Notes under the pieces: model-generated
Told to the model about the DNA's origin: nothing
Seen by the model: the letters and a program-made list of their open reading frames with translations, nothing else
The model's database searches: none
Shown: piece by piece, positions 1 to 63,929 of the stretch
How the letters are laid out: each line of letters begins with the position of its first letter
How positions within the stretch are numbered: the first letter of the stretch is position 1
From: Eledone cirrhosa
Taxonomy: Eukaryota
NCBI GenBank assembly: GCA_964016885.1
Contig: OZ024743.1
Location: 274,226,001-274,290,000, forward strand
DNA length: 64,000 nt
Reading direction: 5' to 3'
Program-made: the position numbers and the translations under genes

Positions 1-52
1 CTAGTAAGATTGATAATTTTTATTACTATCGGTTTCTCCTCCCTGTCTTGTG

Positions 53-1363
53 TTATTTTGTTTGCCTGTATCTGTGTGCTGTGTCTAAAAAATGGTTGGG
101 GTAGAGGGGTTGTCTGCTGATGTTAAGTGGTCTCCTGTGTTTGTTATATTCCTTGTTGTTGTAAAATGTGGTTCGGGTTGGTGGTTGTAGATTGAATGGG
201 GTGTTCCTGTACTGCGAGTATGGGTGTGTGTTTCTATGTGCCATGTTGTATTGTGGTGTTATAAGTGGCCTACGTTGTTGGTTGTATCGTGTGGTGTGGG
301 TTTGTTGTGTATTGTGGAAGTGAGAGTTGAGAAAATGGTAATTACCTTGCTGTCCCCTTGAGGCGGGGAAGTTGTTGCATCTATCATGGCGGTGGTATCT
401 TTTCCCTATGTTTGACGATGAGGAATCCGCGTAGTAGTTGAGTGATTTGGTATGGTGTCTCCTTGAAGGGGGAAAGTTGTAAATGTCATTCTGGCGGAGA
501 TGATTTCTTGGGTTTTTGTTCCTTCTTATGGTAGCGAGGTTGGGAAGTTCATCTTCGGTGTGGTGCTTCCTTCTTCGTTTGTTTGAGGCTTGGGGGTTTG
601 AGAAGTTGTTGTGCGGTTCAGTTATGGGTTTTCCTATTTTTATGAACGGGTTATTGGAGGTGTAATCCGTTTGAAAAGTCGATTCATAGTGTAGGAACCA
701 AGCGGCACTTTTTTCCCAGCGTTGAAGGGATTTCAGTTCTTCTCTGTTGCAGTCCCCTTTCCATAATTTGGAGATCTTCTCTACCTTGGGGCCTTCAGTT
801 TTGTTGTTGATTTCCAGGAGGATCTCTTCATCGATGGTTTTGATTTTTTCCTCATTTGTCTGGGCCCTCAGTTTAAGAAGTTCAATTTCTGTCTTCATTT
901 TTTCCAATGCCATTCTTTCCCTAAGGTGTCTTTGAGGTTCGGGTTCATTTGGAATGGACTTTATTTGTAGTTTACGGGGGAGAGTTAGAGGGGTTGAGTT
1001 AAGCCATTTTTCATATATCTCTGCTTTGTTGTGATTTTGTATCATCTTCCAGAATGAGAACTTTCTGTCTCTGAGGGATTTGTTCCATTTTGGAATTGTT
1101 CGAATTTTCATTTTGTGTGAATCAATCTCACATGGTTCTTCGTTGGTTTTTCCTGGGTTGGTAGTAGTGAACATAGTTTGGATAGTATCGCAAAGGTTTT
1201 GGAGTTTGTCGCCGATTTCGGAGGGTTTGTATCCGGTGGCGGTTTCCTTATTTGTGGAGTCAAGTTTGTCGACCAGCAAAGATAGGTTGGTGTTGATTTT
1301 CTTGAGTTCCTGTAGGATCTCTTCATTTGAGTTGATGAGGGTTGTATCCGTTTTTGTTGGCAT
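53..1363 (-). CDS. Retroelement ORF1-like protein (coiled-coil N-terminal half; basic, N/H/R/Y-rich low-complexity C-terminal half), 436 aa from the first ATG
   Basis: The longest ORF in the window and the only long uninterrupted non-microsatellite one. ATG at 1363 (MPTKTDTT...). Heptad-like segments EEILQELKKINTNLSLLVDKL and ALEKMKTEIELLKLRAQTNEEKIKTIDEEI. A/C-rich coding strand typical of retroelements. Confidence 0.7.
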   Translation of the reverse strand: MPTKTDTTLINSNEEILQELKKINTNLSLLVDKLDSTNKETATGYKPSEIGDKLQNLCDTIQTMFTTTNPGKTNEEPCEIDSHKMKIRTIPKWNKSLRDRKFSFWKMIQNHNKAEIYEKWLNSTPLTLPRKLQIKSIPNEPEPQRHLRERMALEKMKTEIELLKLRAQTNEEKIKTIDEEILLEINNKTEGPKVEKISKLWKGDCNREELKSLQRWEKSAAWFLHYESTFQTDYTSNNPFIKIGKPITEPHNNFSNPQASNKRRRKHHTEDELPNLATIRRNKNPRNHLRQNDIYNFPPSRRHHTKSLNYYADSSSSNIGKRYHRHDRCNNFPASRGQQGNYHFLNSHFHNTQQTHTTRYNQQRRPLITPQYNMAHRNTHPYSQYRNTPFNLQPPTRTTFYNNKEYNKHRRPLNISRQPLYPNHFLDTAHRYRQTK

Positions 1364-1552
1364 TTTCTGTATCTCGTGTGAGGATATGATAGTTAAAAGA
1401 ATAGAGGTGTAACACACAAGTTATTATATATTGGTAAACGGAATAGAAAATGCTGACAAATTGTTCACAGTTGAAAAATGGTTTAATTAGGAATAAAAGA
1501 GTATTAGTGATTGTATGGGTTAGTATTCAGTTGTGGTTTTAAGTTTTTAAGT

Positions 1553-1589
1553 TTTTACCGGTTGCGCATTTCTAAATGCTTTTCAAAAA
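1553..1589 (-). ncRNA. Hammerhead-like motif (U3-A8 core, GCAA in place of GAAA) in the PLE 5' leader
   Basis: Minus strand reads TTT-TTGAAAA-GCATTT ag AAATGC-GCAA-CCGG-TA-AAA: stem II, palindromic stem III ACCGGT, GUA triplet. Stem I is only 3 bp. Confidence 0.45.
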
Positions 1590-1681
1590 TAATTTTGAGA
1601 TAGAGTGTCCGTGCTGTTTGCTCTGATCTGATTAGTTTTGGGAATTCTACCTGTTTTTATGTTAAAAAAATGGCTCCAGCG

Positions 1682-1734
1682 TTATTTATATATATATATA
1701 TATATATATACATACATATATATATATATATATG

Positions 1735-1777
<43 letters not shown>

Positions 1778-1800
1778 ATAAATATATATATATATGTATG

Positions 1801-1864
<64 letters not shown>

Positions 1865-1942
1865 AATATATATATATATATGTATGTATATAAATATATA
1901 TATATATATGTATGTATATAAATATATATATATAAATGTATG

Positions 1943-2001
<59 letters not shown>

Positions 2002-2040
2002 GTATATAAATATATATATATATATTTATATATATATAAG
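1682..2040. repeat. (TA)n / (TATG)n compound microsatellite
   Basis: Direct inspection. Confidence 0.98.
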
Positions 2041-2700
2041 TATGTACACATACATACATATATGTATACAGACGTACAGTAGTATGTATATATATATACA
2101 TACACGCACACATATATATATGTACGTATGGATTCACCGAACATTTATTATAATGCTCAGTGTGTTTGTAAACAAACACCCCGTATTAAGCCGCAGTGTC
2201 CAGCAACCACCGTTGCTCGTTTGTTCAACACTGACAAGGGAACGCTGTACTAGTTTCAAGCTTATTAGCTATCGTCAGCAACGTATACCTTCCTGCCAGA
2301 ATGTTGAACGTATATACTTACCTCATGCATATTAACGGCTGAGTAGCCCAATTTGCATATCGAGTGGGTTAATCGGCCGGGTGCACCGAAAACGATAAAC
2401 GGAAAAAATGAAACGAAATTTCATTTCCCACTCTTAGTACGGCTGTTACTTAAATATAACTATGTACACGTACATACATATATGTATACAGACGTACAGT
2501 AGTATGTATATATATATACATACACGCACACATATATATATGTACGTATGGATTCACCTAACATTTATTATAATGCTCGGTGTGTTTGTAAACAAACATC
2601 CCGTATTAAGCCATAGTGTCGAGCAACCATCGTTGCTCGTTTGTTCAACACTGACAAAGGAACGCTGTACTAGTTTAAAGTTTATTAGCTATCGTTGCTG
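2041..2700 (-). mobile_element. Family A HHR-bearing repeat, about 1.6 head-to-tail units, 420-nt period (retrozyme or PLE pseudo-LTR-like)
   Basis: 2041 tatgtacacatacatacatatatgtatacagacgtacag recurs at 2461. Homologous to 15355-15772, 48657-49897 and 62808-63425. Confidence 0.85.
2243..2283 (-). ncRNA. Minimal type I hammerhead ribozyme (family A)
   Basis: Minus strand: CGTTG-CTGACGA-tAGCT aata AGCTt-GAAA-CTAG-TA-CAGCG. Canonical core, palindromic stem III ACTAGT, GUA cleavage triplet. Confidence 0.85.
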
Positions 2701-2759
2701 ATCTCCCTATTTATTAACTATTATATATATATATTTTTTTTATATTTTTGTTTATTTAC

Positions 2760-3270
2760 TTCCATCAAGATTTTAACTAGCAGGGCGTTTCTGGCAGGGC
2801 GACTAGCAGTAAACTATAACCGTGTCATATTACAACCTGGATGGGGGTGATTGTTTCGTTGGGGTGTGAGGGGACCTGCCTAGGCAAGTTTCGTAGAGTT
2901 TTGAGGTAGTAGATGGTCAGCTTCCTTCGGTCTTGCGTCTGCGCAAACCAGTGGGGGTGAATTGGGACTCACAAAGGAACAGGTGAAAGATTCAAGAACA
3001 CCCGCATTTTCCGTTCCCTTGTCGATTCAATTTGGATTGCCTCGGTAACATAACCTTATTATGTAAGAAGCTGTCTGATGATGTCACAGCACTTTGTACA
3101 CCGAACCGTGTCGCCACTGTCGTCATTGAAATATGTATCACAGCATTATCATTAAAGGACTTTAACATCTGAAACTACTTTACATTTTCCTATTCTAAAT
3201 ATACTCCGTCACTCCTGTGTGGAAAATTTACGTTGAGTGCTTGATTTGAATTGCATCAATATTTACCTTA
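2760..3270 (+). mobile_element. Probable PLE pseudo-LTR fragment carrying an HHR
   Basis: GC-richer island ending in (TA)n at about 3273, containing the HHR at 3070-3144. Confidence 0.5.
3070..3144 (+). ncRNA. Type I hammerhead ribozyme with long stem/loop II
   Basis: GCTGT-CTGATGA-tgtcacag...ctgtcgtcatt-GAAA-TATGTA-TC-ACAGC. Stem I GCTGT/ACAGC, near-palindromic stem III, AUC triplet. Confidence 0.7.
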
Positions 3271-14967: not shown

Positions 14968-15318
<351 letters not shown>

Positions 15319-15319
15319 G

Positions 15320-15354
<35 letters not shown>

Positions 15355-15355
<1 letters not shown>

Positions 15356-15772
15356 AGTATGTATATGTACATACATATATGTATACAGACGTACAGTAGT
15401 ATGTATATATATATATACATACATGTACGTATGTGTTTACCGAACATTTATTATAATGTTCGGTTTGTTTGTAAACAAACAGCCCGAATTAAGCCGTACA
15501 GTGTTCGGCAACCATTGTCGCCCTTTTGTTCAACACTGACAAAGGAACGATGAACTAGTTTCAAGCTTATTAGCTATCGTCAACATCGTATACCTTCCTG
15601 TCAGATTATTGAACGTTTGAAAGTATATACTTTCCTTATGCATATTAACGGCTGGGCAACCTAATTTGAATATCGAGTACGTTAGTCGGCCGGGCGTACC
15701 GAGAACGATAAATGAAATAGAATGAAATGAAATTTCATTTCTCACTTTTAGTACGGCTGATACTTAAATATA
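15355..15772 (-). mobile_element. Family A single unit; HHR at 15548-15588 with a C3U lesion
   Basis: Homologous to 2041-2460. HHR reads CGATG-TTGACGA-...-GAAA-CTAG-TT-CATCG. Confidence 0.85.
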
Positions 15773-21789: not shown

Positions 21790-22430
21790 ATGATTTCAGA
21801 CGTGTTGATGCTCTGGCTCGGCTGGCACCGTTTGGCATGTCTCCGCTCGGCCTCGCAGCCCCGCAATGGTGCCTGCGTCGACGCAGTTCCATCACTTGCA
21901 TCTGGGACTCAGCTGGACAATTAACGCTTGCATATCAGAGTTTTCCCGAGGTTTGGCCACAGCGTCTGCGTCTTACAAATGCCGCTGCAGTACCATTGTG
22001 GGTCGTTTAGAATTCTCCGCACTGTCATACCGTTACAGTGTTAGCCACCTCCCACGCCATACTACTCTCAACGAGATCATAAAGCATGGCCTGGATGGTG
22101 CAGACTTCTCTTTTCAGCTCGAGCCAGTGGGGCTGGACCGAATGGACAGCAAAAGGCCAGACGGCATCATAATCTTCCCATCCTGTGGCTGTAGGCCCCT
22201 CACCTGTGATGACACCTATTCTAGTGGCAACCTGCTGCATTCGGCAGCCAGCCCAATCTCTGCTGCCGGCGAAGTGGAGAATTCCGTCGTACATGGCACA
22301 CAAACCATATCTCTACTCATTGCTATCGGAGCGGAGTTGGCCGCGCACAAGTGCAAGCCACGTGAGGTGGAGTAACTCTTCCAGCGCGGCTCCCTCGAAA
22401 TCCTCCGGAACAATGTATTCTCCATCCTGT
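21790..22430 (+). pseudogene. CRE-like (restriction-like endonuclease) non-LTR retrotransposon 3' relic
   Basis: RHTTLNEIIKHGL...LEPVGLDRMDSKRPDGIIIFP, the RH..LN / EP / KRPDG motifs of the RLE domain. Frameshifted. Confidence 0.8.
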
Positions 22431-26211: not shown

Positions 26212-26505
26212 TATAAGGAAAAAAGATGAAATCGAAAATGCAACTGGTGTCTTTTTTTTTTATATATTTATTTGGTTCCTTTACTGGTTTCACAGTTCTT
26301 GTGCTTTTCAAAACCACAAACCCCTCCATCTAAAATCTACTTTTGAAAAGCACAAGAACTGGGAAACCGGTAAAGGAATGAACTAATTTTTTTTTTTTTT
26401 TAAAAGACTCAAGTTGCATTTTCGATTTCATCTTTTTTCCTTATAATTTCACTCGTGTAGGAAACATCGGTTTTTTTTTCATTTTGTAAAAAAACCTTAC
26501 TTTCT
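26212..26505. mobile_element. Family J foldback with candidate U3-A8 HHR (26340-26375, plus strand)
   Basis: Arms about 26212-26312 and about 26341-26445. Motif CTT-TTGAAAA-GCAcaagaacTG(T/G)-GAAA-CCGG-TA-AAG. Confidence 0.65.
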
Positions 26506-28487: not shown

Positions 28488-28751
28488 CATTGTCTGAAAC
28501 TGCTGGCTTTTGATTGCTTTGGTGAGATTATAATGAGGATTTATTATTAAATAACTGGTTTTGAAAAATCTCAGAAAGGGAATGAGACTTTCGTAAATGA
28601 GCGTTTAATGTATTAATTGTAGTTGGTGTCTGCTTTCATGAATAATTTGCTGTTACTGTAATTGTTATTTGTAGCACAATAGGATGTTGTATACATGCCT
28701 TTTTGGGAAAATGGCATCAAAGGGGTGTGATACATAGCCTTTTGTACTGCT

Positions 28752-28916
<165 letters not shown>

Positions 28917-28919
28917 ATT

Positions 28920-29018
<99 letters not shown>

Positions 29019-29021
29019 ATT

Positions 29022-29098
<77 letters not shown>

Positions 29099-29319
29099 AA
29101 TTAAGTTAAAAGTGTACATCCACATATGTATACTGAAATACTAGTATGCATATAAATACACACACGTATACATATGTACATGTACCGAGTTTTTCACTGG
29201 ACACTTTACTGTGAGTGTCCAGCTAGTCTGTATGTAACCAAACAGACAAACCGGTTTTTAGTGTCATACGGGTTTTCAAGGAAACACCTTTCCTCTATTC
29301 TCCAGAGAGCCAGACAGGA

Positions 29320-29362
29320 ATATTGGACTAGTTTCGATGTTATTACATCTCATCAGCAATAT
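29320..29362 (-). ncRNA. Minimal type I hammerhead ribozyme (family B)
   Basis: ATATTG-CTGATGA-GATGT aata ACATC-GAAA-CTAG-TC-CAATAT. All stems perfect, GUC triplet. Confidence 0.92.
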
Positions 29363-29699
29363 ATACCCATCTTCCGGCTTCTCTAGAGAATCGTAAAAGC
29401 ATATATCGTTATATGCTTTTTCTATGAAAATTAGTAGTGGGCAGACTAATTTGCATAGAACGTGAGTACGCACCGGTTCAGCGGAAACGATAAAAACAAA
29501 TAACGAAACGAAATTAAATTTCGTTTCGTTTGTAACTCACTTTTGTATGACTGACGCTTAAACAATTAAGTTAAAAGTGTACATCCACATATGTATCACG
29601 TTCTATGCAAATTAGTCTGCCCACTACTAATTTTCATAGAAAAAAGCATATAACGATATATGCTTTTACGATTCTCTAGAGAAGCCGGAAGATGGGTGT

Positions 29700-33489: not shown

Positions 33490-33990
33490 GAGACGCTACC
33501 AGAACAAAAGATAGCAATATAGCGAGGAGCACTGGGAAACCTCTCTAATAATTTTTGAGGCAAGTCAGCACGCTCGCAGCGTTACCTGGAGGAATGGCAA
33601 GGCTGAGGTGCTGGAACAACCAAGTGTCCTTACGAGCATCACCAGTTACCTGTGTTTGGCGAGCCGCCAGTGAAGGCGCTGTCAGTATCCCGACTCCCCC
33701 AAACGTTTCCAACGCCACAGGCTGGATAATGTAGTTAGCTGACCGAACACGGTATTTTAGGATTTTGTTCCGTTCAGCTGCGGATGCTGTCGCTCTCGCC
33801 CTTGCCGCTGCATCCAGGATGTGGGAAGAAGCAAAAGTGTCACTAAGTGTGACGTCCCAGTTAAGGCACCTGCCTCTTGACCAGGAGCCCAGAGTAAGAC
33901 TGTCAAGTCTTTTCCCATCAATTCTGGACAACCCAGACTTCCAAAATTGAGGGGATGTTTGCCCGGGCCAAAGTTCTTGAGTTGCAATAG
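33490..33990 (-). pseudogene. CRE-like RLE retrotransposon 3' relic
   Basis: RIDGKRLDSLTLGSWSRGRCLNWDVTLSDTFASSH...KILKY...IIQPVALETFGGVG...[17 protein letters not shown], an RLE C-terminus. Confidence 0.88.
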
Positions 33991-34041
33991 GACAGTTTGT
34001 GTATGTGCAGGCACGAGTTTGTCGGTGTTATTAAATTAGAG

Positions 34042-40953: not shown

Positions 40954-42071
40954 AATTCCATATATGGTCAAAGTGATTGTCAAAAATCAGTAGTAATTCT
41001 GTGGTTGCAAATTAGTAGGGGAGATGGTGGCTAAACCTGCCAGTAGGAGAAGGAGGGGAGGGGTGGAGTAGACCCAATCAAGCGTTGGTAGTGCCAGCTA
41101 CAGCTGGGCATGAGGTCAAAGAAGATACAGGGGAGGGGGAGGGGGAGGAAGTCGGAACGCTAGGTAGAACAATGGGGGGTAGAAATATATAGGAAAGAAA
41201 AAATACTGAGAGTGAAGAAAAGCAAATAAGTGTAAAGAAAAAAGTAAAGTAAATTAAATTCTACGACCTAAGTCTCTAGCTATTGTTAGGCTAGAATGAA
41301 TAAATAAAGAAAGAAAGAAAGAAAGAAGTAAAGAAAGAAATAAAGAAATAACGAAATAAGTAAAAGAACTAGGTGGGACGGATTAGGCAAGGACCCTTTT
41401 AAGAGGTATAAGTACGTAAATGATACGGTGACGGGTCAACAAAAGGGGCCAAAATACTAAAGAGACTACCACAAAATAAACAATAAAGGTTTCCATCCCG
41501 GGCACAATGCCAGCAACCACCCAGTGCAGCAAAGTGAACTTGTACGAGATAATAATTCTGAGTCCCGAGAAAAATATATACTAATGCTAACTCTAAAAGA
41601 TCTAAAACAAGCTACATGAAAGTTCGTACGAAGTAAAGGTAGAATACGGAAAAATAAATTCAGAATCCACCCCGCCCAAAAGAAAAGCGAAGAAAGAAAT
41701 ACTGAAACGAAAAAATAAGGCATAAGTGCCACTAAGAAATATAGAGGGCACAGAGAATAGTGGGAGCGGTCGGAAAAAGGGGACAAGTATCCGGGGTCTA
41801 AACCAACTGCTATAAAGGGTGGAGTCCGCCAAATCTATCATAGACTAGGGGAGGGGGTGGGGGTACTAAGGCTACAAGGGGCCAAAGGGCAGCCTCGGGT
41901 GGGCGAGAAAAGACGCCGACAAAGGAGAAGAGCTGGGGTAGAAGGACTAAGGAGAGAGGGGGGAAGGAAATAAAGGAATCGATAAAAGAATACAAAGAAG
42001 ATCTTACGTCTCCCTTGGCAAGCAGGGGTTACCCATTGCAAAATCGGCAAGTGGGGTGTTATAGCCCTAGT

Positions 42072-42690
42072 CTACCCCCCCCCCCCCGGGTCATTATGGG
42101 GTTTGAGGGCGAGGTAAGTCCTACGCAATCTATGTTTACATGCAGTAACCAGTTCATCTTTCTTGTTTAGGAGTTGGTCCGTCGAAAACAGCATTTGTAA
42201 AGTTTCCTCCGAGCATAAATTGCACGGACGGCGTCCTCCCGTGTAAGAATTGGCTCTGGACAGTAATCTCCAAGTGAGATCATAGGTGATGTTGTTGTCC
42301 TTGAGGTCCCATATGTGGCCCGAAAGTGTAGTGGCGTGACGCCGGGCCGGGTTTCGGAAGGTATGTCTATGTTGGTATAGCCGGGTCTTGAAGTCACATG
42401 CGGTAAGTCCTATATAGGCTTTGTTGGAGGTATCCGTCCTCACGTTGCACTGGTAGATCACATTACGGTCTCTGCATCTATTGTCTAGTGGGCAAATAGA
42501 TCTATCCGGGCAGTTACACCTCCTGGTCGGTTCTCCACTGCTATTTAGGTTATTTCTGCCATCGGGGTTGAGTTTTTTGTTGTTAGAGGAGACGATGTTT
42601 TGTGCGAAGTTTGGTGTAGTGCTGTAAGAGAGTTTGATGGTATTTTTGTTAATTATGTTGTGGTAGCGGTGTTGTAATGGGAAGTGAAAA
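42072..42690 (-). CDS. PLE C-terminal Cys-rich linker plus GIY-YIG endonuclease (5'-truncated, frame intact)
   Basis: TIKLSYSTTPN...CNCPDRSICPLDNRC...VIYQCNV...YIGLTACDFKTRLYQHRHTF...TTLSGHIWDLK...CNLCSEE...LLNKKDELVTACKH. Confidence 0.9.
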
Positions 42691-42860
42691 ACACTTCCCA
42701 TTACAACACCGCTACCACAACATAATTAACAAAAATACCATCAATTATATTGCGTTTATTAGTTGGTGATGCGCGTTTTGCTATTAATAGGCTCATGGTT
42801 CGATCTGTATCGATCTGGCCCAACTCAGCTTGTCGGACCTCGGTTGTAGCAATGACAGAA

Positions 42861-48117: not shown

Positions 48118-48772
48118 AGGTACGTGTGTAGGCAATGTTTATGTACGTATGTGTTCGTATGTGTGTGTGGACATGAGTGAGTTTACGTTTGTGTATATAT
48201 GTGCGTGTATGGATGTATGTGTGTGTGTATATATATGTATATATATACATATAGTTATGTAATGAACAACATAGGATAATTATTTCATTCACCAGTGGTT
48301 TCTTGAAAGCAAACGATATTTACTTTTATTCATGAGAATGAAAAAATCCTAGGTGTGTATATGTATGTGTGTATGTACATGTGCGTATATATGTATGTAT
48401 CTGAATGTATGTGTGTATGTATATATGCGTGTGTATGATCGTGTGTATGAGCGTGTGTATATATATATATTTAAATGTATAGAAGGTTGGCCGTATATGT
48501 GTGTGCGCGCATGTGTATGTATATATGTGTACGTTTGAATATGACATGCTTACCCAATTGATACAGAACAGCCAGAAGGCTCGTGGCGGCATGTATCAAC
48601 AAGTGTGTGTGACTGGGTCTATGGGAGAGGGGGGAGTGGGTGTGTGAGTATATATATAAGTTGAAATAAAATGAAAAGGAAATTTCATTTCACACACTTA
48701 GTACGGCACTTACTTAAATGTAAGTATGTGTGTATACGTACATACATATATGTATACAGACGTACAGTAGCA

Positions 48773-48898
<126 letters not shown>

Positions 48899-49051
48899 CA
48901 GGTACACATACATATATGCACGTATTAGTTTAGCGGACGCTTATTATAACTCCGCTTTGCTCGTTTGTAAACAAACTGAACAGCCTGAATTTTTATGCCG
49001 TATGGTGTTAAGGCAACCACGTCACCTTTTTGTTCAACACTGACACAGGAA

Positions 49052-49092
49052 CGATGTACTAGTTTCAAGCTTGTTAGCTATCATCAGCACCG
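49052..49092 (-). ncRNA. Minimal type I hammerhead ribozyme (family A')
   Basis: CGGTG-CTGATGA-tAGCT aaca AGCTt-GAAA-CTAG-TA-CATCG. Confidence 0.87.
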
Positions 49093-49329
49093 TATACCCA
49101 TCTGCCAGATAGTTGAACGTTCGAAAGTATATACTTTCCTTATGAAAATTAACGGCTGAGCAGCCTAATTTGCATATCGAGTGAGCTAAGTCGGTCAGAC
49201 ATACCGAAAATGATAAGTTGAAATAAAATGAAAACGAAATTTCATTTCTCACTCTTAGTACGGCACTTACTTAAATGTAAGTATGTGTGTATACGTACAT
49301 ACATATATGTATACAGACGTACAGTAGCA

Positions 49330-49391
<62 letters not shown>

Positions 49392-49392
49392 C

Positions 49393-49475
<83 letters not shown>

Positions 49476-49628
49476 CAGGTACACATACATATATGTACCT
49501 ATCAGTTTAGCGGACGCTTATTATAACGCCGCTTTGTTCGTTTGTAAACAAACTGAACAGCCTGAATTTTTATGCCGTACGGTGTTAAGGCAACCACGTC
49601 ACCTTTTTGTTCAACTCTCACACAGGAA

Positions 49629-49669
49629 CGATGTACTAGTTTCAAGCTTGTTAGCTATCATCAGCACCG
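49629..49669 (-). ncRNA. Minimal type I hammerhead ribozyme (family A', second unit)
   Basis: Identical to 49052-49092, 577 nt away. Confidence 0.87.
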
Positions 49670-50334
49670 TATACCCATCTGCCAGATAGTTGAACGTTCG
49701 AAAGTATATACTTTCCTTATGAAAATTAACGGCTGAGCAGCCTAATTTGCATATCGAGTGAGCTAAGTCGGTCAGGCATACCGAAAACGATAAGTTGAAA
49801 TAAAATGAAAACGAAATTTCATTTCTCACTCTTAGTACGGCACTTACTTAAATGTAAGTATGTGTGTATACGTACATACATATATGTATACAGACGTATA
49901 TATATATATAGACGTATATATATATATATAAGGAAACACGGAAGACACAAAGACAATGTCGTTTCCCGCTCAACGGCTATCTTCTGTGGATCATTATAGT
50001 TTCAAATATATAATGGCTGATTAAAAACCCACGAGCTTTTCTCTTGAAAATTGTATTCCGTTGTTTACTTTTCTTGTCCTCTTCTATCCTGTTTCTTTTA
50101 TTTCCCTATTTGTCATTCAATGAAAGACAAACGTCCGAAACTTTGAGACATTTTTCCTAATATATCAAGCATTAAACTTATACATATCATTATTGCATTG
50201 AATCGATCTCCTCTGTTGTTTTTCCTTGTTGAGTTTTCGCATATATATTTTTTTCCTGTGTGTTTACAGGGTCATACAGCAGAAACTCAACTCCAGAGTA
50301 ACAGGTTTCTGACTCAATTTTAATTAAACCTATA

Positions 50335-62795: not shown

Positions 62796-62807
62796 ATATA
62801 TATATAT

Positions 62808-63425
62808 GAGCAACGATGGTTACTAGACACTGTACGGCTTAATTCGGGATGTTTGTTTACAAACACACCGAGCATTATAATAAATGTTCGCTGAATCGAT
62901 ATGTACATGTATATATGTGTGCATGTATGTATATATTATATATACATACTACTGTACGTCTGTATACATATATGTATGTACGTATACATACTTATATTTA
63001 AGTAACAGCCGTACTAAGAGTGAGAAAGGAAATTTCGTTTCATTTTTTCCGTTTATCGTTTTCGATACCCCGGCCGATTAACTCACTCGATATGCAAATT
63101 GGGCTGCTCAGCCGTTAATATGCATAAGGAAAGTACATACTTTCAGACGTTCAATCATCTGACAGGAAGGTATACGTTGCTGACGATAGCTAATAAGCCT
63201 GAAATTAGTACAGCGTTCCTTTGTCAGTGTTGAACAAACGAGCAACGATGGTTGCTAGACACTGTACGGTTTAATTCGGGTTGTTTGTTTACAAACACAC
63301 CGAGCATTATATTAAATGTTCGGTAAATCCATACGTACATGTATATATGTGTGCATGTATGTATATATATATATACATACTACTGTACGTCTGTATACAT
63401 ATATGTATGTACGTATACATACTTA
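62808..63425 (+). mobile_element. Family A repeat, about 1.4 units, 432-nt period
   Basis: gagcaacgatggtt.ctagacactgtacgg at 62808 and 63240. Reverse complement of 2041-2460. Confidence 0.88.
63175..63215 (+). ncRNA. Minimal type I hammerhead ribozyme (family A, slightly decayed)
   Basis: CGTTG-CTGACGA-tagct aata agcct-GAAA-TTAG-TA-CAGCG. Confidence 0.75.
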
Positions 63426-63929
63426 TATATATATATATATATACATACATATAAAGAGTGAGAGCGAGCGAGATGAAAAATGTTTAGAAACGGCAGTGTT
63501 CATCACGCATGTTGATTTATACATGCCTATGAACATAATTACGTGTGTGTGTATGTGAGTTTGTATGTTTCTATGCGATCGCATTAACATGGCCATCAAT
63601 ATGGTATTTAACTATGAAACCGGCAGAGCTGTTTCAACGAATATTATCTAAAAGGCAAATTGAAAGGATGTTGGATAAGTTTGTGTAGGACAGAGAAGGA
63701 GGAAATAATTGACTGTAAATGTATATCTCCTTTAGTTCTCACATCAGTAGTAATTAATTTAACTAACGGCAATTAGATTAATTTGCTCTAAACAGCTGTT
63801 CCAAGCTCACATTCACAACACGCTTCAACTTAAATGTTGATGAGAAAAGGATAAATCAGAGAAACCCTATGTCCGCCATTTATACTGATACGTTGTAAAC
63901 GAGGATTCAATTTTCAATAATGATAATAA

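Follow-up and report, generated by a model that had tools for sequence, protein, structure and literature searches.

How does a retroelement reach its second reading frame when the first one closes shortly before the edge of the DNA at hand, and what would drive the switch between the two? This question is raised by the left end of the window, the 64-kb stretch of DNA analyzed here. On the minus strand, 1682 to 1 would hold the 5' portion of a Penelope-like (PLE) retrotransposon with two ORFs, present in multiple copies, probably of the Neptune type and inserted in (TA)n. The original prediction proposed that ORF1 is joined to a probable PLE reverse transcriptase (RT) frame by a programmed -1 frameshift. 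The features on which the analysis rests are the following:

53..1363, minus strand: ORF1, 436 amino acids, with ATG at 1363 and TAA at 55-53 (frame translation)
86..92, minus strand: T TTT TTA, slippery heptamer phased as X XXY YYZ (reading frame; x-Phe-Leu trace in homologs)
85..87, minus strand: TAG that ends the +1/-2 frame right at the heptamer (frame translation)
52..55, minus strand: ORF1 stop TAA (55-53) with C at +4 (sequence; spacing in homologs)
1..122, minus strand: -1 frame, putative start of ORF2 (PLE RT) (frame translation; identity suggested by the homolog P0175)
1364..1682, minus strand: leader of about 317 nt, presumed pLTR-like end segment (contig depth and contig ends)
1683..2025, no strand: (TA)n-rich microsatellite, 5' border of the element and probable insertion target (sequence)

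The heptamer T TTT TTA is formed on the minus strand by the codons CAT (94-92), TTT (91-89) and TTA (88-86) and is followed by 10 sense codons and the TAA, which places the TAA 11 codons from the TTA. The predicted site, its phase and its distance to the stop were thereby confirmed from the sequence. Translation equally confirmed the -1 frame: after a stop at 125-123 it meets no further stop between 122 and the window edge, and no ATG is present in this visible part. Past the shift, 28 codons of the -1 frame are visible, and the open stretch of 40 codons is unremarkable alone. The visible frame ends in an IINLT-type stretch, which we take to resemble a PLE start motif. Throughout the 437 codons scanned, T TTT TTA is the sole phased canonical heptamer of ORF1. 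Codon shuffling (20,000 rounds) produced a phased T6A with a frequency of 0.00025 in the last 45 codons and of 0.0034 anywhere in ORF1. Any canonical heptamer arose within the last 45 codons of codon shuffles at a rate of 0.25; the class as a whole is therefore not rare, and the evidence lies in the specific T6A site together with its conservation.

The protein encoded by ORF1 displays heptad-like short helices (9-67, namely at residues 9-40 and 48-67), a conserved all-helical core (about 76-240) and a disordered basic tail, which is rich in N, R and H. Its structure model is helical throughout to about residue 240 and disordered beyond. Neither a Pfam family nor an Atlas match was obtained for ORF1, its model has no fold match at E 0.001, and a Gag fold or zinc knuckle is absent. 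Using HMMER, 560 representatives of the family (clusters at 50% identity) were found at E 0.001 or better. The nearest named relative, in Octopus bimaculoides, is 70% identical over 20% of the query, and the other named members among the matches listed come from Pinctada and Mytilus, which supports the mollusc-like host that had been predicted. No description of the family was found in the accessible parts of the literature searched; one may exist in the Terminon paper, the 2006 PLE survey or Repbase. The accessible parts of PMC3846280, PMC6431247, PMC5408684, PMC6515669, PMC4700185, PMC11167929, PMC13282606 and bioRxiv 2026.07.22.740005 do not describe it. Judged by its sequence, ORF1 is an unnamed helical protein family that is large and unannotated. 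It would act as an RNA-binding, oligomeric protein in RNA packaging or as a chaperone.

Conservation of the site was addressed with 76 homologs of at least 320 amino acids, taken from 151 proteins among the matches listed (the best 150 of 560); shorter homologs, mostly fragments, were left out. The median pairwise identity of these 76 proteins is 29%. Phe-Leu is present within the last 45 residues of 61 of them, among the matches listed, and missing there in 15. In comparison, upstream windows contain Phe-Leu in 4, 3 and 13 of the 76, and shuffles gave a mean of 6.6 and a maximum of 14. The residue preceding Phe-Leu in the 61 homologs is H, S, R, P, N, Y, D, L or G. Those residues whose codons cannot end in T (K, E, Q, M and W) are found in 0/61, against a background of 22% (nominal p 2.5e-7, the kin not being independent). 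This is the pattern to be expected, because x-T TTT TTA leaves such an x-Phe-Leu trace in the protein. Furthermore, the residue after Phe-Leu is of a type with a G-starting codon in 46/61 homologs, and the ORF1 end is kept among cluster members from separate assemblies (8/8, 3/3, 14/15 and 14/15).

From the homolog proteins we deduce that the heptamer would be conserved family-wide. Outside near-identical copies, the heptamer and the frame offset are read from protein sequence and not from homolog DNA, so that T TTT TTA in the homologs is a deduction. A search for homolog DNA gave nothing in metagenome contigs, viral contigs, plasmids and phages, and the 24 pattern matches in prokaryote genomes include no credible ORF1 relative (best 10 bits). 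The Phe-Leu of P0001, P0066 and P0085, which lie outside the 320-aa set, was discarded, as it belongs to the core NPF motif of truncated proteins. As a separate observation, the long ORF1 tails of P0042, P0069, P0073, P0100, P0119, P0128 and P0130 end in a common E-T-x-x-K stretch. This is perhaps what remains visible of an ORF2 start motif in the overlap; compared by hand, it agrees with the -1 as well as with the +1 reading. Overall, a conserved -1 frameshift at the ORF1 end of the element is likely.

U UUU UUA is the slippery sequence of HIV-1 gag-pol. The element resembles this system in the heptamer itself, in a structural ORF upstream and a polymerase (here a putative one) downstream, and in the G-starting codon that follows Phe-Leu in the 46 homologs mentioned. 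It differs in that this copy has no downstream stem-loop and that its ORF1 has neither Gag fold nor zinc knuckle. The RNA fold in the 85 nt after the site is not better than that of shuffles (z -0.88), and no stem or pseudoknot is visible there, the longest stems being 4 bp. A 3' stem-loop or pseudoknot 5-9 nt downstream of the heptamer was not found. Within 1680-1 the site region has no special pairing partner either, since 19% of the shuffles equalled the best one.

The position of the stop is more conspicuous. In the 61 homologs, among the matches listed, the distance from Phe-Leu to the stop is never below 10 codons; it is exactly 10 in 20 and 11 in 5 of them, whereas it exceeds 11 in 36/61. 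The later stop rate predicts about 5 homologs at exactly 10 codons. The 10-codon tails share 9.8% identity vs. 7.4% after shuffling. Gly amounts to 0.68 in the first 10 tail residues of short-tail homologs and to 2.0 in those of long-tail homologs.

One explanation of the stimulus is RNA structure. Here, most relatives would rely on a local pseudoknot and this copy on long-range pairing with sequence outside the window, and the stop position would be a by-product. This is a serious candidate, although it falls short of being probable. According to the Fig. 1 legend of PMC8557442, a frameshift with a pseudoknot can set ORF1 of a PLE apart; the accessible text names no clade for this. The Gly-rich tails of the long-tail homologs would fit G-rich stems, and the window ends at base 1, so that sequence beyond could pair. 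What speaks against structure is that no stem above 4 bp lies within the 85 nt, that 1680-1 holds no better-than-shuffle partner and that the constant spacing accompanies unrelated tails.

The other explanation is a collision of ribosomes, in which a ribosome pausing at the ORF1 stop blocks the next one translocating on U UUU UUA; it is possible, but doubtful. According to the accessible text of PMC6815119, a ribosome stalled at UGA in E. coli stimulates a -1 shift in the trailing one, with a peak at a 9-codon spacer. For vertebrate pause sites and stops, the available part of bioRxiv 710491 describes queues with a period of 11 codons or 30 nt, as well as a preference of collided stops for C at +4. 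The odd stop spacing, the missing fold and this published queue periodicity led us to propose the terminating ribosome as the roadblock. In favor of a collision are the floor of 10 codons with its excess of homologs exactly there, a spacing that stays fixed although the tails are nearly unrelated, and the scarcity of Gly in short tails as opposed to long ones. Two homologs without the terminal Phe-Leu, P0017 and P0081, end 10 residues after another Phe. The window itself has no stimulatory fold and combines the 11 codons from TTA to TAA with TAA-C.

The collision nevertheless faces several objections. In a quick tree, 20 of the 21 rows with exactly 10 codons (window included) fall in one clade of 26, so that they are not independent and come close to one origin over long branches. 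The nearest homologs of the window, P0002 and P0004, have 20 and 26 codons, respectively, and more than half of the family, the 36 homologs above 11 codons, departs from the short spacing. P0124 (274 aa, outside the 320-aa set) has its Phe-Leu at 6. Moreover, the spacing could equally be set by an RNA structure that contains the stop or by pairing with sequence outside the window, and an effect of stop position has been attributed elsewhere to pseudoknot refolding, as stated in the accessible part of PMC8168617. Distances of 20 codons (P0002, P0003, P0014, P0086 and P0138) and 30 codons (P0098, P0119 and P0128) were seen to recur; these are possibly multiples of one ribosome length, in numbers too small for statistics.

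For the clade that holds the window, the collision is tentatively favored; overall it stands close to the structural explanation. Its counterparts are the synthetic collision reporters of E. coli in the accessible text of PMC6815119, which likewise place a slippery site one ribosome length before a stop and do without RNA structure. The case described here would differ from them in being natural, eukaryotic and conserved and in a spacer of 10 instead of 9 codons; its stimulus is a prediction. No natural stop-spaced frameshift stimulator was found in the accessible parts of the literature searched.

As far as sequence can tell, a -1 slip of ribosomes at U UUU UUA, with an ORF1-ORF2 fusion as its product, is the most probable course. 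Most ribosomes would stop at the TAA and yield the 436-aa ORF1 protein, whereas a minority would slip and continue into ORF2. The product would be an ORF1-RT(-endonuclease) fusion made at a lower ratio, as in gag-pol. In the clade with the window, the ribosome terminating 10 codons downstream may be the roadblock for the trailing one.

Could the element do without a programmed frameshift? In that case Phe-Leu would be a protein motif, and ORF2 would be translated from its own downstream start through reinitiation, leaky scanning or splicing. In a killifish Neptune element the two ORFs are separate and do not overlap, and the accessible text of PMC12602865 does not mention a frameshift for it; furthermore, the gene model P0175 connects the frames through an intron. 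However, a protein motif would not limit the preceding residue to T-ending codons, Phe-Leu sits in a disordered tail, and the visible -1 frame has no ATG. We therefore regard this explanation as improbable.

The identity of ORF2 depends mainly on P0175, a gene model from Mytilus galloprovincialis, in which KF and DKG motifs lie in a region joined to the end of an ORF1 homolog. P0175 ends before the RT core, and its joint is a predicted splice, which gives no frame offset. The downstream region was grouped with DUF8422 at 0.98 (Atlas), which would correspond to the PLE N-terminus. P0175 has no sequence match in Pfam or PDB, and its single-sequence structure model is poor (pLDDT 36.5). KF and DKG are general PLE motifs according to the accessible part of PMC8557442, and by eye the Neptune rows of that paper are the ones most like the P0175 region, so that a Neptune-type PLE is probable from this visual comparison. 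P0175 retains DKG and KF, and the DKT of the Hydra clade was not seen; DKG instead of DKT argues against that clade. Hydra-clade elements are described with DKT, a non-conserved GxKF and a single ORF below 3 kb. An assignment to them was rejected, since P0175 keeps DKG and KF and the element is longer and has two ORFs.

Element size points in the same direction. From 79 contigs listed for homologs, 20 genome scaffolds were dropped, and of the 59 counted, all below 10 kb, 30 measure 3.6-4.4 kb (cluster mates not being independent). This size leaves room for ORF1 and about 800 amino acids. Taken together, the one homolog and the element size suggest that ORF2 is a PLE RT. Within the 64-kb window, no RT domain was found for this element, whose continuation to the left of base 1 lies outside. 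A word-based search gave no longer ORF1 fusion forms; it recovered 4 relatives vs. 560 by HMMER, and this blank result therefore carries almost no weight.

A frameshift into something other than a PLE RT, i.e., another retroelement class or an unrelated ORF, has little probability. It gains from the mere 28 codons that are visible after the shift and from the fact that a single homolog cluster, about 29% identical, provides the PLE link. It is opposed by the PLE motifs in P0175, the mode of contig sizes at 3.6-4.4 kb and the (TA)n borders. The gag-pol-like two-ORF PLE of the original prediction is supported by an ORF1 that ends after the conserved site and by P0175, which continues into a PLE-type N-terminal region.

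Endonuclease-bearing (EN+) PLEs are described as RT plus GIY-YIG in the introduction of PMC8557442 and as single-ORF in its abstract. For an EN+ Neptune element, the features considered were GxKF and DKG, a C-terminal GIY-YIG with a CX2-5CxxC linker, a pseudo-LTR or tandem arrangement, a hammerhead ribozyme in the pLTR, (TA)n and a single ORF. The last of these is contradicted here, as ORF1 stops at 53 and the homologs stop likewise. With Neptune EN+ PLEs the element has the (TA)n insertion bias and mollusc hosts in common and would share the DKG-type motif, which was seen in P0175; its size fits RT plus endonuclease. It differs from their single-ORF description in an ORF1 that stops on its own, and neither endonuclease nor linker was seen in the part of the element within the window. 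A GIY-YIG fragment elsewhere in the window (42075-42725) was rejected as the 3' end of the element because it has no DNA similarity and carries Hydra-clade motifs. In itself, this fragment (42050-42744, minus strand) is 5'-truncated, has a CxCX5C linker and no CCHH, and matches the description of the Hydra PLE clade. A perfect 53-nt inverted repeat (42634-42686 / 42692-42744) lies at its 5' junction.

A T6A frameshift between a coiled-coil ORF and RT reportedly occurs in the Athena/Terminon elements of rotifers. These elements of bdelloid rotifers resemble the present one in a PLE RT (here a putative one) that follows a helical or coiled-coil ORF1; the likeness of ORF1 is one of helical character. 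In contrast, the present element is bordered by (TA)n, and no telomeric repeats were seen in 1-3000. Athena/Terminon elements are giant, compared with contigs of about 3.9 kb here, and no pseudoknot was seen here. The element would function in the manner of gag-pol and is a probable PLE and a possible member of Neptune.

The element is multi-copy and its ORF1 is under selection. Contigs from four runs were aligned to 1-1450, with 682 records from run X1. As a check of other genomic copies, no indel is listed over this region in three runs, and the fourth has one 1-nt gap at 754. A run-X4 contig spans 1-409 gap-free, with its 5 changes all within 299-390. Among the 40 variants listed out of 74, 21 are synonymous, against a random expectation of 0.20. 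A private indel in a decayed single-ORF element, for which the canonical single-ORF form of PLEs would speak, is largely excluded: homologs throughout the family and cluster members end ORF1 just past the same Phe-Leu, other copies have no indel here, and the Phe-Leu trace across 61/76 distant homologs makes it very unlikely.

At the 5' end the element is inserted in (TA)n, with its border at 1683. Contig depth in run X1 is far higher at 1373-1450 than over ORF1, and contigs of this run also end near 1389 and 1395, where they are joined to (TA)n; depth and ends together suggest that the leader is a pLTR-like end segment. No hammerhead is among the Rfam matches listed for 1-1700. Part of the leader (1554-1605) has a 52-nt inverted match (79%) to 26324-26374, in a palindromic region near 26270-26385.

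Other repeats occur in the window. A dispersed repeat of about 250 nt, partly in tandem, is present at 2026-2275, 2446-2695, about 15150-15770, 28750-29520, 48670-49930 and 62800-63450. Hammerhead-core motifs lie in it at 2278 (-), 29356 (-), 29706 (+), 49087 (-), 49664 (-) and 63180 (+), and Rfam HH9 matches at 29303-29375 with 32.9 bits, below the gathering score. From these motifs the repeat appears retrozyme-like or pLTR-like. Decayed frames at 21809-22372 (+) and 33548-34027 (-) presumably resemble the C-terminal restriction-like endonuclease region of CRE-type non-LTR elements.

EN+ PLEs have been described as single-ORF, but the ORF1 homologs, in 560 clusters at 50% identity, point to a large family without annotation whose layout would be gag-pol-like. 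We tentatively suggest that in this putative two-ORF PLE family of marine invertebrates the frameshift is stimulated by the ORF1 stop itself, which sits one ribosome length past U UUU UUA. If true, a collision of ribosomes, and not an RNA structure, would program the -1 frameshift in a natural and conserved case, and RT output would be tied to ribosome load. A stop spacing that acts as the stimulator would provide a natural eukaryotic case of a mechanism that the accessible literature shows only in synthetic bacterial reporters. Frameshift searches that require a downstream RNA fold would then miss such sites.
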